64,000 nucleotides of DNA from Brevinematales bacterium (GTDB lineage Bacteria > Spirochaetota > Brevinematia > Brevinematales > JAOACQ01), in contig JAGVOW010000034.1 of the NCBI GenBank assembly GCA_020052515.1, positions 296 to 64,295 on the forward strand. The letters are read 5' to 3'. How positions within the stretch are numbered: the stretch's first letter is position 1; each line of letters starts with the position of its first letter. The notes beneath the pieces were generated by a model. The model was given only the letters and a program-made list of their open reading frames with translations, made no database searches and was not told where the DNA came from. Positions 15,966 through 63,692 of the stretch are shown here, one piece after another. Made by a program: the position numbers and the translations under genes.

Positions 15966-17516
15966 TTAGTGCTTAAAATGCCTGACGCCGGTAAAAACCA
16001 TTGCCATATTGTTTTCATCCGCGGCCTGAATAGAATCCGCGTCTCTTACCGACCCGCCGGGTTGAATGATCGCCGTTATACCTAATTTTGCCGCGTTATC
16101 CACTGTATCCCGAAAAGGGAAAAAAGCGTCAGACGCCATCACAGCGCCTTTCAAATCAAATCCAAACTCCTGAGCTTTAATCGCCGCAATTCTCGCAGAA
16201 TCCACTCTCGACATCTGGCCTGCACCGGCCCCAAAAACCTGCTGATTCTTCACATAAACAATAGCGTTTGATTTAACGTATTGAGCTATTTTCCACGCAA
16301 ATTTCAAATCTCTCGCTTCACTTTCCGTAGCGCTGCGTTTTGCCGCTGCTTCCCACTTTTCTGGATAAAAACCAATATTATCCCAATCGCCTAACAAAAA
16401 CCCATTCTCGATCCTTCGGTAATTTTTCCCTTGCTTACTCCAATCTTCTCCCTTCAGCTTTAAAATTCTTAGATTTTTCTTCCCTTTCAATAAGGCAAGC
16501 GCCGCTTCATCATAATCCGGGGCAAGCACAATGTCAAAAAAAGTTTCATTCATTTTCGCGGCAGTCGCAGCATCCACTGTTTTATTAAATCCAACAATCC
16601 CTCCATAAGCTGAAACCGGATCACCCGCTTTAGCTCTTTCAAAGGCGTCTAAGATAGTATTTCCCAGAGCCGCTCCGCAAGGGTTTGTGTGTTTAATAAC
16701 TACACAAAAAGGGTCATTAGATACAAATTCTCTCAATATATCCAGACAAGCGTCGGCGTCCAGATAATTATTATAAGACATTTCCTTTCCCCACAAAATT
16801 TCAGAGCTCAGCAAAGAAATATTATGATCCACACCGCTTTTATACAATCGGGCCTCCTGGTGAGGATTTTCGCCATAACGCAGATGACTTTCCAATTTCA
16901 AGGGAATTGAATGTTCAACCGGAAACTTTTGGTTAGTCTTCTGATTAAAAAAGCTGGAAATCAACCCATCGTAATAAGCAGTATGACTGAAAGCCTTAGC
17001 GGCTAAAAGCATCTTAGTTTCTAAAGAAACAGAACCTTTTTCGCTCATCTCTTTCCTGACAAACTCAAAGTCCTGATTATTTACCAGAACAACAACATCT
17101 TTATAGTTTTTCGCCGCCGCGCGAATGAGAGCAACCCCGCCAATATCAATCTGTTCAATAATTTCTTCCAGACTGGATTTTTGATTTTGAATGGTTTCTT
17201 CAAAAGGATAAAGATTTACTACCACAAAATCAATGGGAGCAATATTTTTTTCCTCTATTTCTTTTAAATGTTCTTTTTTGTCACGCATCGCCAGAATACC
17301 CGCATGAACAACAGGATGAAGCGTCTTAACCCTGCCGTCCAGAACCTCCGGAAAACCGGTAGCTTCGCTCACTTCAGTAACAGGTACCCCTTTTCCCTTC
17401 AAGTGCTGATAAGTCCCGCCCGTAGATAAAACCTCATAATCCATTTGGGACAAAAAGCGCGCAAATTCATCAATGCCCTCTTTTTTATAAACGCTGAAAA
17501 GCGCCCGCCTCTTCAT
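15966..17516 (-). CDS. purH: Bifunctional AICAR transformylase / IMP cyclohydrolase
   Basis: 516 aa. N-terminal MGS-like ALFSVYKKEGI...STGGT and a C-terminal AICARFT region ending FTGVRHFKH. Confidence 0.96.
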   Translation of the reverse strand: MKRRALFSVYKKEGIDEFARFLSQMDYEVLSTGGTYQHLKGKGVPVTEVSEATGFPEVLDGRVKTLHPVVHAGILAMRDKKEHLKEIEEKNIAPIDFVVVNLYPFEETIQNQKSSLEEIIEQIDIGGVALIRAAAKNYKDVVVLVNNQDFEFVRKEMSEKGSVSLETKMLLAAKAFSHTAYYDGLISSFFNQKTNQKFPVEHSIPLKLESHLRYGENPHQEARLYKSGVDHNISLLSSEILWGKEMSYNNYLDADACLDILREFVSNDPFCVVIKHTNPCGAALGNTILDAFERAKAGDPVSAYGGIVGFNKTVDAATAAKMNETFFDIVLAPDYDEAALALLKGKKNLRILKLKGEDWSKQGKNYRRIENGFLLGDWDNIGFYPEKWEAAAKRSATESEARDLKFAWKIAQYVKSNAIVYVKNQQVFGAGAGQMSRVDSARIAAIKAQEFGFDLKGAVMASDAFFPFRDTVDNAAKLGITAIIQPGGSVRDADSIQAADENNMAMVFTGVRHFKH

Positions 17517-59249: not shown

Positions 59250-59753
59250 ATGAGGGTGGCAGCCATGTTCTGGATCATCGGCCGTACAATCGCTAAAGCC
59301 GGCATCGGCATACTCACTCTTCCGATCAGCCTTACTATTGATCGCTATATTCTGAGAAAGAACGGCTTGAGCACCGGGACATTTATCCTGGTTTTCATTT
59401 TTGTCAATGCTTACTGGGCAATTCCAATGCTTGGTTTCGGCCTGGAAGCAATGATCCATTGTTTTGATCCTTCAAAAGCCTTTCTGGGAAAAGAAATCGC
59501 TTCGAGCTTTTTGATCCTTGTCGGTTCTTATTTTTATTGGCTTCCTGCCGGCTGTCTCTTTTGTCTTGTTTTTCTGGCTTTATTCAGACGTAAGGCCAAT
59601 TTTTTCTCGTGGAATTTTGGATCCAAGGGAAATAATCATTCGCATTTGCTGTGTCTTATTTTTGCTGCTGCCTCTGGTTTTTCAAGTGGGAGTATTTATT
59701 GCCCGCAAGTTTGGCCGGATCGGGTAAAAAAGCTTATACCGTTAACTTTTTAA
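59250..59753 (+). CDS. Possible small multi-pass membrane protein (uncertain)
   Basis: The ORF has about 4 hydrophobic segments, but no clear RBS and no family resemblance. It overlaps the 3' end of the convergent DUF4276-like gene by 20 nt. Confidence 0.35.
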   Translation: MRVAAMFWIIGRTIAKAGIGILTLPISLTIDRYILRKNGLSTGTFILVFIFVNAYWAIPMLGFGLEAMIHCFDPSKAFLGKEIASSFLILVGSYFYWLPAGCLFCLVFLALFRRKANFFSWNFGSKGNNHSHLLCLIFAAASGFSSGSIYCPQVWPDRVKKLIPLTF

Positions 59754-60285
59754 CCGCTTGAATCAAATGATAAAAACTTAGAGATCGTTTATTATCCACT
59801 TTCAAGTGCGGGCTGATCCGTCGAGAACCGTCTATCTTCTGATAATGCGGGACAAGACGCTTCAGCTCTATTGAAGGTGACATAGCGCTGTCCGGTTTCC
59901 GGAACAATCTTTTCCCTTGCAAAGAAGCTATACCGGGTAAACCCATGCCTTTCTCAACCGCTTCTAAGTCAGCAAGGTACCAGCTTTCCAATTCACGACA
60001 CGCTATTCTAATAATTGTCTCAGACTTTCCTGCCTCCAGACATTTAGCGTACAAATTTTTTTTAATATCCTTACAGTCACCAGAATCCTGATCACGCAGA
60101 ATAATAAACTGAACATCCGACTTCAGATATCCACGAAGTTTCCTCACCAATTGCTTTTCAAGATCCTGCTTTCCTTCAAACACAATATAACGTACTTTGA
60201 TAGTATTGGGTAATATTCTCGGAAGTAACCCTTCCAGCATTACTTTTGCAGAACGCTCTTCCAGTAAAAAGACAATCTCGCTCAT
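59734..60285 (-). CDS. DUF4276-like protein with a Toprim-like acidic motif pattern
   Basis: 183 aa with VFLLEERSA, FEGKQDL, ILRDQDSGDC and ELESWYLAD. Its ATG overlaps the stop of the upstream ATPase gene (ATGA at 60282-60285). Confidence 0.8.
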   Translation of the reverse strand: MSEIVFLLEERSAKVMLEGLLPRILPNTIKVRYIVFEGKQDLEKQLVRKLRGYLKSDVQFIILRDQDSGDCKDIKKNLYAKCLEAGKSETIIRIACRELESWYLADLEAVEKGMGLPGIASLQGKRLFRKPDSAMSPSIELKRLVPHYQKIDGSRRISPHLKVDNKRSLSFYHLIQAVKKLTV

Positions 60286-61469
60286 AAAGGGTCTGCCCCC
60301 GTAAAGAACCCCTGCCGCCAGAGATAACCGAGTTTATCCCCTTCTCCCATATATTTTCTAAGCTGCTCATCATCGGCGGCCTTTTTTATTATTGTGTAAC
60401 CGTTCTCTTTCTGAAGCCAAAAAACTTCTTCCAGTTCCGCAGCGTTTAGAAAATCGGGAGAGTGGGTAGATACGAATACCTGGCCGCCTTTTCTGGAATA
60501 TTCGCGAAATTCTTCGGCTAACTCCATTAAAAGCTTTGGATAAAGCTGATTTTCCGGTTCCTCGACGCAAAGGAGCGGATGAGGTTTCGGATCGTTCAAT
60601 AAGACCAGATAAGCAAACATCTTTATAGTACCATCCGAAACATGCCGGGCTAGAAACGGATCCTGAAAAGCCCCATCTTTAAACCGAAGCAAAACACGCC
60701 CTTCTTCGGTAATTTTTGAGTCAACATCCGATATTCCTGGAACCCGCTGTTTTAGCTTTTCAATTATGGAACTGAATATTTCCGGATGGCGTTTGTAAAG
60801 AAATTCTGTGACCAGAGAAAGGTTTTCGCCTTCGCGCGATAAGTGTTCCGCATAGCCCGCTTCATGTTCCGGTTGAGCACGTTGAATATGAAAATCAGAT
60901 ATATACCAGTTTTCCAGAAGCTCGCCAAGTGCTTTACTCGCGGGAAATTTTTCAAACTGGGCAAGTCCTTTTAACGCCAGAATATCAGGTGATTTTAAGG
61001 TGTGGTCTTCCCGCTTTAGTTCTGTTTTTTCTGTTACTTTATCCGGTTCATTCATAACCGCTTTTCCTGTTCCACGGGAGAAATCGAGGAATCTCCAAGG
61101 TTGGCCTTTACTACCTCGGCGGTATTGTAAGATTTCTTTTTCTATAATAGGGCGGCCTTTTTCTTCATTTATAGATAAAAAATAGGTTACCAGTGGTGAT
61201 GAAGAATTTTCCCGAAATTTAAGCTCAATTTCTATTGGACCTTCTGCCCCTCTGCTTTTGACCTCTTGAAATCCCTTACTGCCGCCTAGTTTTGTTAGGG
61301 CTACATGAATATTGTCAGCTAAAGCGTCCTGGAGGAAACTGAAAACATTAAACAGGGTTGTTTTACCCGACCCATTAGCGCCGACAAAAATGCACATTTT
61401 AGGCAAGTTTTGTATTTCCACATTTTTTAGGGCCTTAAAATTTTTAAGCCGAATAGATTCAATTTTCAT
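60282..61469 (-). CDS. SMC/RecF/ABC-type AAA ATPase (AAA_21/AAA_15-like)
   Basis: Walker A GANGSGKTT, helical insertion, signature-like VSDGTIKM, Walker B LLCVEEPE, H-loop STHSP. aaggag RBS. Confidence 0.88.
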   Translation of the reverse strand: MKIESIRLKNFKALKNVEIQNLPKMCIFVGANGSGKTTLFNVFSFLQDALADNIHVALTKLGGSKGFQEVKSRGAEGPIEIELKFRENSSSPLVTYFLSINEEKGRPIIEKEILQYRRGSKGQPWRFLDFSRGTGKAVMNEPDKVTEKTELKREDHTLKSPDILALKGLAQFEKFPASKALGELLENWYISDFHIQRAQPEHEAGYAEHLSREGENLSLVTEFLYKRHPEIFSSIIEKLKQRVPGISDVDSKITEEGRVLLRFKDGAFQDPFLARHVSDGTIKMFAYLVLLNDPKPHPLLCVEEPENQLYPKLLMELAEEFREYSRKGGQVFVSTHSPDFLNAAELEEVFWLQKENGYTIIKKAADDEQLRKYMGEGDKLGYLWRQGFFTGADPL

Positions 61470-61618
61470 GGGATGTCTCCTTTTTGATCAAATATTATTA
61501 TACAGTAAACCTAAAATTAATCATAAAATCTTTGCTATTACAAATAAATTTCTGGTACTGTTTCCTTTACCAGCGAATAGCGCGAAATTTTATGACTTTC
61601 GTGATTTTTTCTGTGTTC

Positions 61619-61678
61619 TAATATTTAGCATAAGGATTAAGAAGACTAAAATCAAGTTTTATTATTGATGATTGCTTC
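61619..61678. repeat. 60-bp direct repeat, copy A (carries a TTGATT-17-TATGCT promoter on the minus strand)
   Basis: 58/60 identical to 62314-62373. Lies 150 nt upstream of the ATPase ATG. Confidence 0.95.
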
Positions 61679-61808
61679 CATCAGGAGGACCCTTTTGCGC
61701 AATTCGGGGACGGTTTTTATGCCGCGAAACATTCTAAATTTCGTGTGGTTGGTGAGCTTGTCGTTCTTGGTTTCACTTCTTCAAAAAGGCTTCCAGAGTC
61801 AAGTAAAA

Positions 61809-62078
61809 TTATTTAGGGAAGTATTTGTAAATATCCTTTCTATCTAAAAATCTGGAAAAAAACACAGTTTTATTAACAATTTCAATGCCCGCACGATATG
61901 ATCCGGTAGAGATCCTATAATATGTTTTGTAACCTTTTAATTTCTTCAAATTTTTTATTTCCCTTATGTCTTTAGCATTGGCAACAACTGTGATAACGTC
62001 TTTTACTGCCTGAAAAAGCTCTTTGTTTTTTATATTGAGCATATCTTTTTTAAAATTGCGTTCCAGTTCATAATTCAT
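61809..62078 (-). CDS. RelE/ParE-family type II toxin
   Basis: 89 aa. The KKLKGYKTYYRISTGSYRAGIEI...FLDRKDIY pattern is typical of the RelE/ParE family. ATGA overlap with the upstream gene. Confidence 0.85.
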   Translation of the reverse strand: MNYELERNFKKDMLNIKNKELFQAVKDVITVVANAKDIREIKNLKKLKGYKTYYRISTGSYRAGIEIVNKTVFFSRFLDRKDIYKYFPK

Positions 62079-62302
62079 CAGCGGCTGCCGATTTTAGAAT
62101 CTAAAAACTTCATGAATTCATCTTTGTCGATAAAATCATTTTTCCGGCCTTCCTGAATTAAAAGCCCAAGATTTCGATCCTCGATAGCTTCGATAAGGTT
62201 TAAAACTTTATTCTCATCGACAAAAATTTCCGTTACAGTTTCAATAACAGTTTTATGAACAATGTCTTTTAATTCGTTTCTGCTTAAAGTAATGCTTTCC
62301 AT
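62078..62302 (-). CDS. Putative antitoxin of the RelE/ParE pair
   Basis: 74 aa from ATG 62302, which follows a ggagg RBS. Acidic C-terminal half (EDRNLGLLIQEG...DKDEFMKFL). Sits upstream of and overlaps the toxin gene. Confidence 0.75.
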   Translation of the reverse strand: MESITLSRNELKDIVHKTVIETVTEIFVDENKVLNLIEAIEDRNLGLLIQEGRKNDFIDKDEFMKFLDSKIGSR

Positions 62303-62313
62303 AATGACCTCCA

Positions 62314-62373
62314 TAATATTAAGCATAAGGATTGAGAAGACTAAAATCAAGTTTTATTATTGATGATTGCTTC
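62314..62373. repeat. 60-bp direct repeat, copy B (promoter of the toxin-antitoxin operon)
   Basis: -10 TATGCT at 62327-62322 and -35 TTGATT at 62350-62345 on the minus strand. The antitoxin ATG is about 20 nt downstream. Confidence 0.95.
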
Positions 62374-62517
62374 TCCGAATTGGCTGTCGTCAAATTTGTA
62401 AGAAAGCTTTTCCCCTTTAATTAAGGCATGCATAGATAATCCAAGTAGTTCCGAGAATTTCAATAATCTTTCCGTCGGAGGAAAGGATGATAATTCATAT
62501 TGCGACAAATCTGTCAA
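62347..62517 (-). pseudogene. Possible degenerate XRE-type HTH remnant (56 codons, TTG start only)
   Basis: The frame reads TDLSQYELSSFPPTERLLKFSELLGLSMHALIKGEK..., which resembles helices 2-3 and the following region of an HTH_3 domain but lacks the N-terminal helix. Its stop lies inside repeat copy B. Confidence 0.3.
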
Positions 62518-63641
62518 TTTTTGAAGGATTTAATCCACTTGATAAGATCACTGGCATGAGGAGGGCAGCCCGGGACAAAGCCCTCTGTACTGCTGTTCTT
62601 TTTTGAGCAATTTCCCACAAAAATAGAATTGACAAAAGGGGTAATTATTTCAGGAGCAGCTTTTAGTCCAATGTAAAATTCCTGGGTCGCTTTGTCGTAT
62701 CCTTTTTCCAGCACCTCGATTACAGAGGAAAGGCATTGTGAGCAGATTGCCTTGTTTGAGAACAGCTTACTCTGAAAACGCTTGTTGATCAAAGCATCCG
62801 GGTTTTCCAGCTCGGCGGGGGCCTTATTCAGCTCTACGATTTTAGGTTGGCCGGAAAAACCAAGGTATTCTTTGTAGGCCTTTAAGTAGCCAATCTCCCG
62901 GATATCCAACCCTAAACTGGCCGCGGCATAGTAATCAAAAGCAAACAAATCCTGGCTCATAAATATTTTTCTAAACCGGACTGGCGCTATCCCCTCTTCA
63001 GAATAGGCGTCGCCGACGATAGCGTCCCCTATATTCAGGGTAGTTTTGATGACAGTATTTAATTCAAAAATAGAATTGTCTAATCCGGAATGATAAAAAT
63101 TACTTTTTTCACTCTCGCTGATAATGCCCATCAGATTTTTCATCCCGCATGACAGGCCGGTCTGGCTATGCGCTTTTAATACGGGGATGTTAATAATTTT
63201 ATCCGCTTTTAATATCGTTTCGGCTATTCGGATATCTTTTAATTTCGAATAATTTCCCGGAACTTTCACAGGTACAAATTTATCTTGCTTTAAATCGACC
63301 AGATTGACATTGTATTTTGTGCAAAGTTTCTCATAATCGCAAAATTTGAAAGCCTTTGCTGTGTCAATTTTAAGTTCTGCCCCTTCCGCTATGGTTATTT
63401 TTTTTACTTTCAGCTTCATTAACTCGATGATTACCTGTTCTACCAGAGACGGGTCAGTAGTGGCTCCTGTGGAGCTTTCTTTCAGGATTTCCACATTTGG
63501 CTTTATGACCACATTTTCGTTAGGTGAGAAGAGCTCTGCCGGGCTTATTTTGTCGGATTTGGCGGTTTCATCAAATAAAGTATGTATCAAATCAGCGGGA
63601 GAATCACCATAAGCGACATATACCGAATGGTCCTGAATCAT
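62514..63641 (-). CDS. DUF362 domain protein
   Basis: VVIKPNVEI...TGATTDPSLVEQVI...KKITIAEGA pattern of DUF362 and a Cys-rich C-terminal part. ATG 63641 chosen because the longer ORF would contain its own promoter. Confidence 0.82.
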   Translation of the reverse strand: MIQDHSVYVAYGDSPADLIHTLFDETAKSDKISPAELFSPNENVVIKPNVEILKESSTGATTDPSLVEQVIIELMKLKVKKITIAEGAELKIDTAKAFKFCDYEKLCTKYNVNLVDLKQDKFVPVKVPGNYSKLKDIRIAETILKADKIINIPVLKAHSQTGLSCGMKNLMGIISESEKSNFYHSGLDNSIFELNTVIKTTLNIGDAIVGDAYSEEGIAPVRFRKIFMSQDLFAFDYYAAASLGLDIREIGYLKAYKEYLGFSGQPKIVELNKAPAELENPDALINKRFQSKLFSNKAICSQCLSSVIEVLEKGYDKATQEFYIGLKAAPEIITPFVNSIFVGNCSKKNSSTEGFVPGCPPHASDLIKWIKSFKN

Positions 63642-63663
63642 AAAATCATCCTTTACGCATTTC

Positions 63664-63692
63664 ATTATAACCTGGCTGAAGCGATATTTCAA
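63664..63692 (-). promoter_or_regulatory. Sigma70-type promoter of the DUF362 gene
   Basis: Minus strand reads TTGAAA, 17 nt, TATAAT. The -10 hexamer ends 22 nt upstream of ATG 63641. Confidence 0.7.

Follow-up and report, generated by a model that had tools for sequence, protein, structure and literature searches.

Known systems and the locus

Three-gene toxin-antitoxin (TA) operons with a separate upstream regulator are known from paaR2-paaA2-parE2 of E. coli O157 and from omega-epsilon-zeta of pSM19035, in which a helix-turn-helix (HTH)-type regulator gene stands directly before the antitoxin and toxin genes on a mobile element. A related layout is found in 64,000 nucleotides (nt) of DNA from a Brevinematales bacterium (assembly GCA_020052515.1, contig JAGVOW010000034.1, positions 296 to 64,295), here called the window, where two copies of a 60-nt direct repeat, here called R, stand upstream of a RelBE-type TA pair (copy B) and of a candidate anti-phage operon, HEC-01 (copy A). 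R is read here as a portable block, composed of the end of a regulator gene of mobile elements and of the promoter that follows it, which would have been duplicated by recombination around exchangeable cargo, and the probability of this reading is put at roughly 0.7. The regulator differs from those of the two described operons in that it is a two-domain XRE protein with a conserved tail, in that the TA promoter overlaps its stop codon and in that at least seven unrelated TA families stand behind this one type of regulator; in the window its gene is a stump, predicted to be non-functional.

Integron cassettes often hold TA pairs with their own promoters, and these, including the TA cassettes of chromosomal integrons, resemble the unit in the window as sub-kilobase TA pairs that are bracketed by direct repeats and occupy a variable slot. 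The repeat described here is unlike theirs, since it consists of a gene end and a promoter, has neither a folded attC nor core sites, and its junctions vary.

The hotspots of P2/P4 prophages and the TA pairs of Tn3-family transposons (PMC7157771) are similar in that unrelated cargo lies between conserved flanks, which in the present family are 85-99% identical. The family is unlike them in its backbone of ParA, DnaG-type primase and tyrosine recombinase, in a regulator that varies with the cargo and, in the window, in the duplication of the promoter block. The operon behind copy A resembles the OLD/PARIS-like systems that pair an ABC-ATPase with a Toprim protein, because an AAA_21/AAA_15 ATPase gene is followed by a DUF4276 gene, whereas the AriB protein of PARIS is a DUF4435 protein. 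DUF4276 has been placed in the Toprim superfamily (PMC12065111) and is found among the AAA15/21-ATPase defence systems related to PARIS (PMC11464382). Compared with HEC-01 elsewhere, the upstream promoter block is specific to this locus.

The repeat and the end of a regulator gene

The two copies of R are identical at 58 of 60 positions and their starts are 695 bp apart, as the first-pass annotation had claimed. One mismatch lies just after the -10 hexamer (61626/62321, T/A) and the other in the spacer (61639/62334, A/G), and both edges are sharp, identity being lost abruptly on either side. Each copy has, on the minus strand, the layout described for it before, which is 23 nt, TTGATT, 17 nt, TATGCT and 8 nt. 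The first 23 nt encode E-A-I-I-N-N-K-T and the start of a stop codon, and TTGATT contains this TGA stop. The two small frames that had been noticed to end here (GEAIINNKT* and MEAIINNKT*) do end in R; they are not separate genes, since both are the C-terminus, LM-EAIINNKT*, of one family of double-HTH proteins. The window has this C-terminus twice: in copy B it closes a truncated gene, and in copy A the gene end stands alone.

In a phmmer search of 1.8 billion representatives, the 56-codon open reading frame (ORF) that precedes copy B aligned with the C-terminal portion of proteins about 220-240 residues long. The relatives found number 36, are mostly 220-240 residues long and each have two HTH_3 (XRE-type) domains and a conserved tail (...SIHALxTGxKLxFxFxDxxFxxxILxADxxLxLExxKxLIxLMxxII...). 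The double-HTH (XRE) regulator family is defined in this analysis by the alignment A1, with a profile length of 232, and the profile scan used an alignment of 10 sequences. Genes of the family in metagenomes, whose loci are given by L numbers, end in LMEAIINNKT* (L043, L061), LMKAIINNKT* or LMESALNNKT*, followed by AAAACTTGATTT or ...AATAATAAAACTTGATTT...; this identifies R's first 27 nt as the authentic 3' terminus of the double-HTH gene family.

The hidden Markov model (HMM) of the family matches the window only at 62511-62356 (E 5e-19), which corresponds to profile positions 157-208 of 232. The stump keeps these positions and the last 4 residues, while the N-terminal two-thirds are gone; the losses comprise the first HTH, one half of the second HTH and 22 codons of the tail. 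Compared with the intact gene of L044, 66 nt (22 codons, KTILSADQQLSIEEKKNLINLM) are missing between ...FG and EAIINNKT*, which joins ...SQFG-EAII directly to NNKT*. The FGEAII of the stump aligns to FGKTIL, FGETIL or LNEAII of the family, so that the deletion lies between two similar short motifs, EAII...EAII. Judged by these losses, the window regulator is a gene remnant, predicted to be non-functional, and the double-HTH protein could not be made at the locus. Another decayed copy is found at L060:2661-3332, which is frameshifted and has its body and its tail (LMEAILQNTSYS*) in different frames.

The repeat as a generic dispersed element (MITE- or REP-like), as a chance match or as an assembly artefact is scarcely credible. 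For these origins there is nothing beyond the existence of two copies, and one half of R is the coding end of a known protein family. A 52-nt core of R, with up to 3 mismatches allowed, has only 2 sites in the 64-kb window, copies A and B, where 0 matches are expected from 100 dinucleotide-preserving shuffles, and short-word BLAST found no further copy in the 64 kb. R has no terminal inverted repeats, and neither the metagenome nor the viral collections contain a match to a 27-nt core. The identity of R as the template or variable copy of a diversity-generating retroelement was also rejected, because the mismatches are not adenine-specific; no reverse transcriptase was noticed in the ORFs near the locus, the window not having been searched for one.

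The promoter that follows the gene end

The relatives support the promoter-like element that had been proposed in R: TTGAWW-17-TATNCT is retained across 8 independent spacer classes and always lies a short way ahead of a ribosome-binding site and the start of an antitoxin gene. In about 20 related loci, found in groundwater metagenomes, the same gene end has TTGATT-17-TAT(C/G/T)CT, which starts at or beside the stop codon and precedes a ribosome-binding site. After the gene end, 14 family loci have TTGATT (TTGAAA in one), exactly 17 nt, and TATCCT, TATTCT or AATAAT, which corresponds to TATGCT in the window, and further downstream they have 6-12 nt, GGAGG or GAGG, 5-9 nt and the ATG of a small gene. 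The spacer sequences are unrelated among the eight classes, all of them 17 nt long, and the -35 hexamer is TTGATT in 7/8. The conservation of hexamers and spacing while the spacers differ supports the reading as a promoter, and in both copies of R the arrangement TTGATT-17-TATGCT is within the 16-18 nt spacing of sigma-70 promoters. The sequence AAAACTTGATTT is coding (K-T-stop) in genes of the NNKT* type and lies after the stop in genes of the NNQK* type (...NNQK-TAA-AACTTGATTT), so it is conserved as DNA and not as protein.

The opposite (plus) strand of R has promoter-like sites with higher scores than the proposed one, namely TTGAGA-17-TATTAT in copy B (62332-62360, 10/12) and TTAAGA-17-TATTAT in copy A (61637-61665, 9/12). 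These sites would drive antisense transcription into the regulator stump or into the 3' end of the toxin gene, and they may be chance matches in an AT-rich block. The third and last match of TTGATT-N17-TATNCT in the window, at 17205-17233 on the minus strand (TTGATTTTGTGGTAGTAAATCTTTATCCT), is probably due to chance.

Exchangeable cargo in related loci

The position directly behind the family promoter is, judged from the aligned loci, a slot where recombination swaps TA pairs belonging to many families. The cargo belongs to at least seven TA types (RelBE, YafQ, HicAB, PIN, PIN_2, PIN_3 and UPF0175/DUF3368), and comprises a small antitoxin with PIN (L042, L043, L045-L047, L056, L057, L061), PIN_2 (L040, L041), PIN_3 (L048, L065), a RelB-like antitoxin with RelE/ParE (L044), DUF2281 with YafQ (L049), UPF0175 with DUF3368 (L053) and HicB with HicA (L055, L058). 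The left flank, from the regulator towards ParA, is 85-99% identical across loci with different cargo, and the right flank, from 0-45 nt past the toxin stop, is likewise 85-99% identical between such loci. The hypervariable module between the conserved flanks, which consists of the double-HTH gene, the promoter and the TA pair, is observed across L040-L061, L065 and L066.

The backbone on the longer contigs (L040, L065, L051) encodes a tyrosine integrase, a DnaG-type primase, ParA, a small gene, the regulator-TA module and a second tyrosine recombinase. The family loci come from groundwater and soil metagenomes, and many variants coexist in the same groundwater metagenomes. Members of the double-HTH family were found neither in PLSDB, which gave generic HTH matches only, nor in IMG/VR.

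The junctions between loci are those of a mosaic. L042 and L048 are 91% identical through the regulator to TTGATTT and 45% beyond it, and for L040 and L044 the identity is 69% over the 150 nt upstream, rises to 94% (68/72) within a block and falls to 42% beyond it. This shared block begins at the M-E-A codons and ends 7 nt beyond the -10 hexamer, while R runs from the E-A codons to 8 nt after it. A block with nearly the edges of R indicates that the last codons and the promoter together form an independent recombination unit in the family. The first-pass annotation had also offered, as an alternative, that the repeats are recombination scars of cassette insertion, and this fits best, given that TA cassettes are exchanged behind the block and that a block with the same edges is mosaic in L040/L044.

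A repeat-cassette-repeat layout and a size of 695 bp, which are reminiscent of integron cassettes, together with the tyrosine recombinases that related elements encode beside the slot, would agree with R as a site-specific attachment site, attC-like or Xer/dif-like, and with the 695-bp unit as a cassette inserted by a recombinase. However, the single strand of R does not fold (-1.9 to -2.5 kcal/mol, z +0.2 to +0.4, for both strands and both copies) and R has no GTTRRRY/RYYYAAC ends. The cargo junctions of the family lie just after the -10 hexamer or at the -35, so that the left junctions of relatives are at differing points (after TTGATTT or after the -10). The right-hand junctions are spread across about 45 nt and have no motif in common with the left side, and the other ~20 family loci have no second copy of the block. 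The scattered right junctions and the unfolded R make site-specific exchange very improbable, and the exchange of cargo in the family looks like homologous or illegitimate recombination. The integron attC was dropped as an identity of R, which does not fold and is without core sites.

A conserved non-coding stretch lies directly after the toxin stop in L061 (1034-1900), with equivalents in L053, L042-L046, L048, L055 and L057. Between loci its identity is 85-96% across as much as ~860 nt, and it includes a GC-rich, hairpin-like segment (CTCACGGGGTACTGGGTTAGAGCCAGTCTCC...); it has no long ORF and no Rfam match, and it is followed by a conserved ORF of 52-63 residues (...YRLTGYEHKGAWRERG). The contig L055, which has 1985 nt, begins (1-101) and ends (1764-1985) inside the same flank element (~1376-1476 and ~1040-1259 of L061, respectively), so the unit could be a circle of ~2.1 kb or a member of a tandem array.

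The toxin-antitoxin pair in the window

Copy B lies upstream of the antitoxin gene, as had been described, and its edge is 11 nt, and not about 20 nt, from the ATG at 62302; the end of its -10 hexamer is 19 nt before this ATG. The coordinates of both copies and of their neighbours are given in Table 1.

Table 1. Features of the locus on the minus strand, with the observations on which each assignment rests (aa, amino acids)
Feature	Position	Strand	Observations
Copy B of R	62314..62373	-	EAIINNKT codons + TGA 62347-62373; -35 TTGATT 62345-62350; -10 TATGCT 62322-62327; predicted start ~62314-62316
Copy A of R	61619..61678	-	codons + stop 61652-61678; -35 61650-61655; -10 61627-61632; predicted start ~61619-61621
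Core of R, example sequence			GAAGCAATCATCAATAATAAAACTTGATTT
Double-HTH regulator stump	62347..62517	-	family HMM; ORF end inside copy B; 5' end adjoins the DUF362 stop
Antitoxin, 74 aa	62078..62302	-	preceded by GGAGG; weak Pfam match to RelB_like_antitoxin
RelE/ParE-family toxin, 89 aa	61809..62078	-	start overlaps antitoxin stop (TGATG)
Spacer between toxin and copy A, 130 nt	61679..61808	-	only the last 6-11 nt resemble regulator codons
Leader, 149 nt	61470..61618	-	predicted long imperfect hairpin; AAGGAG; TGTATAAT ~30 nt before ATG
ABC-type ATPase (AAA_21/AAA_15)	60282..61469	-	PADLOC PDLC04144 (HEC-01B) 668 bits; Pfam AAA_21 6.7e-35
DUF4276 (Toprim superfamily)	59734..60285	-	PADLOC PDLC04143 (HEC-01A) 272 bits; Pfam 2.9e-11; overlaps ATPase stop by 4 nt
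DUF362 gene	62514-63692	-	Pfam; stop adjoins the stump

The pair has the layout of a type II system, with a small antitoxin gene directly upstream whose stop overlaps the ATG of the toxin, and is a candidate TA pair by its sequence. The toxin aligns with PDB 3bpq_B, RelE3 (E 2.8e-14, residues 7-88), and its relatives carry PF05016, for which its own Pfam score is 19.3 bits, below the cut-off of 23. It is thus like the toxin of the RelBE pair of Methanocaldococcus jannaschii (RelE3, 3BPQ), while the window antitoxin is unlike that pair in having no detectable solved relative. The match of the antitoxin to RelB_like_antitoxin in Pfam (E 0.009, 16 bits) is under the cut-off of 27, and the antitoxin of L044 matches the RelB-like model with E 0.0017. 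The window antitoxin is 47% identical to that of L044 and the toxins are 52% identical; no other relative that shares words with the window antitoxin was found among 5.8 billion proteins. Since the homologous pair of L044 stands behind an intact regulator, the order in the window (regulator end, promoter, 11 nt with GGAGG, RelBE) is the norm of the family, and copy B most likely drives the RelBE pair.

There is an in-frame alternative ATG at 62312-62314 on the minus strand, which consists of the last base of copy B and the next two, four codons before the antitoxin start, and the public gene call takes this ATG (78-aa form, P0069). The 74-aa antitoxin is more likely, because GGAGG would fall inside the coding sequence of the 78-aa form. 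A RelB-like/RelE pair with a toxin 51% identical to that of the window is present in L067 (4272-12267), next to genes for a tyrosine integrase and for a type I restriction-modification system and without a double-HTH gene, so this TA family also travels in other defence-island contexts.

Type II antitoxins mostly autoregulate at their own promoter, and from this it had been suggested that antitoxin control could extend to HEC-01 through copy A. An operator within R would then be bound by the RelB-like antitoxin or by the complex with its toxin, and this binding would repress or derepress the HEC-01 operon and so link the expression of defence to the state of the TA pair. This coupling would be in line with the near-identity of the copies, whose two mismatches are both outside the hexamers, with an 8-nt palindrome at the end of copy B (TAATATTA), of which copy A retains AATATT, and with seven loci (antitoxin MTINLTLN... 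and PIN) in which the spacer accompanies the cargo through three variants of the regulator, as would fit a cargo-specific operator. It is nevertheless unlikely, because R shows no inverted or direct repeat longer than 4-5 bp that would resemble an operator, the RelBE homologues in L044 follow a promoter whose spacer is unrelated, and L040 and L044 have the same promoter, including the spacer, with different TA families. The 11 nt between R and the antitoxin ATG, which could be an extension of the operator, are not duplicated. The single-sequence AlphaFold2 model of the antitoxin is poor (pLDDT 56), and no relative of the antitoxin was found in PDB.

Copy A and the HEC-01 operon

Copy A is upstream of the ATPase gene, as was claimed, with 149 nt, where 150 had been given, between its edge and the ATG at 61469. 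It is preceded by CTGATG (Leu-Met), as in the gene ends of the family, and its DNA matches L043/L061 from 61684 (94% over 36 nt, E 5.5e-8) and L042 from 61689. The match to the gene ends reaches 6-11 nt past R (61679-61689), so copy A is more than a duplicate pasted from copy B. The junction of copy A with the leader is 8 nt after the -10 hexamer, the same place as the cargo junctions of the relatives.

The spacer between the toxin gene and copy A has a GC content of 45%, compared with 31% in the TA genes. It has no terminator, no significant fold and no detectable relative, and the conserved right flank of the family was not found in it by nhmmer. The predicted hairpin of the leader (61470-61625 region, inverted repeat I1) has an energy of -31.6 kcal/mol (z -2.9, 1/200 shuffles as stable), with 40-nt arms at 61490-61529 and 61587-61626, and its base includes the last 7 nt of R. 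No other copy of the leader is found in any sequence compared, and Rfam gave no match to R, to the spacer or to the leader, even when E was allowed to reach 1.

The ATPase and DUF4276 genes are adjacent, as in the HEC-01 pair, which is conserved in 39 loci, and they form by their sequence a candidate anti-phage system. In the 39 relatives the DNA shared with the window begins at the ATG, and none of these loci has a double-HTH regulator or a TA pair near HEC-01. The ATPase is 78-82% identical at the protein level to those of filamentous cyanobacteria (Anabaena, Cuspidothrix, Phormidium) and of a deltaproteobacterial metagenome-assembled genome (L001-L010, L036), whereas the neighbouring DUF362 protein has no relative above 57%, which suggests that the two genes arrived recently, as a module, by horizontal transfer.

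The stretch from the toxin gene to the ATPase gene has no predicted terminator, so read-through from copy B can reach HEC-01. HEC-01 would then be transcribed by this read-through, from copy A and perhaps from TGTATAAT at 61496-61503 on the minus strand, a perfect TATAAT preceded by TG, 28-35 nt before the ATPase ATG, which may be a proximal promoter for HEC-01. Copy A could also be an inert scar, HEC-01 being transcribed only by read-through or from the proximal TGTATAAT, so that the duplication would have no regulatory meaning. The quality and position of this TATAAT, the lack of a predicted terminator, the entirely different upstream sequences of the HEC-01 relatives and a promoter in R that is weak by consensus are all compatible with a scar. 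On the other side, both hexamers and their spacing are intact in copy A, whose two differences from copy B lie elsewhere, and the proximal TATAAT has no recognisable -35 and is within the 3' arm of the predicted leader hairpin. The inert scar is a possible reading, though a doubtful one, and copy A, with its hexamers intact, probably adds a second start for HEC-01.

Origin of the duplicated block

The locus holds a decayed chromosomal remnant of a regulator-R-RelBE unit and a second block joined to the leader of HEC-01. The preferred scenario for its history is a single event. A resident gene end (...FG-EAII-tail-LM-EAII-NNKT*-promoter) would already have headed the leader and the HEC-01 operon, and a fragment 'EAII-NNKT*-promoter-RelBE-spacer' from a related unit would have been inserted into the resident tail. 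The left join would have been made at the first EAII motif by microhomology, and the right join would have been illegitimate, at an arbitrary point in the tail. A single insertion of this kind would explain the fused FG-EAIINNKT*, the normal spacing of promoter and antitoxin, the Leu-Met remnant before copy A, the sharp edges of R and the differences at 2/60 positions, which would be those between donor and resident. The regulator that probably belonged to the R promoter is predicted to be non-functional here.

Several points weigh against this account. Beyond Leu-Met, the peptide upstream of copy A does not score as the family tail, and an HMM of the tail alone does not place it among the best matches in the window. 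Instead of a single insertion, a tandem pair of regulator-headed units that later suffered deletions, or a brief patch of gene conversion as in L040/L044, may equally have produced the locus. In no relative does HEC-01 or another defence operon stand directly behind the family promoter, which would make the junction of copy A and the leader a one-off, and no close relative of this genome is present in the collections searched. They contain no identical or nearly identical copy of the ATPase, the toxin or the antitoxin; the best DUF362 relative is 57% identical, and one that is 52% identical is without synteny. With respect to the promoter, TTGATT/TATGCT agrees with the sigma-70 consensus at 8/12 positions only, which is below the cut-off of the consensus scanner and is why the scanner did not list it, and the -10 hexamer of the family is only 6-12 nt before the ribosome-binding site, so that leaders would be very short. 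No sequencing run contains the window; among runs, the family loci occur only in those of groundwater DNA, and the RNA runs that are linked to them are very small and came out empty.

Meaning of the arrangement

Mobile TA cassettes, cargo hotspots and promoter duplication are themes that are already known, and the family-wide architecture of regulator, promoter and TA slot is a more interesting by-product of the analysis. The region 59734-62517 would be a chromosomal island of ~2.8 kb made of mobile-element pieces, which are a dead regulator, a RelBE pair, a candidate anti-phage system and the same promoter block before each operon. The arrangement in which the stop codon of a double-HTH gene overlaps the promoter that heads a TA slot is undescribed and very regular in uncultivated groundwater organisms.

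It is also conceivable, although quite improbable, that the block of ~60-70 nt is a dedicated capture point, and that operons joined just after its -10 hexamer gain expression and, in intact elements, control by the double-HTH protein. If this were true, the window would record a platform that captured both HEC-01 and a TA pair and that expresses or regulates the two jointly from identical promoters, and cargo would be captured in an integron-like way by homologous or microhomology recombination at a promoter, without a dedicated integrase or attC sites. The family would be a natural system in which to study how mobile elements shuffle and express their TA and defence cargo.

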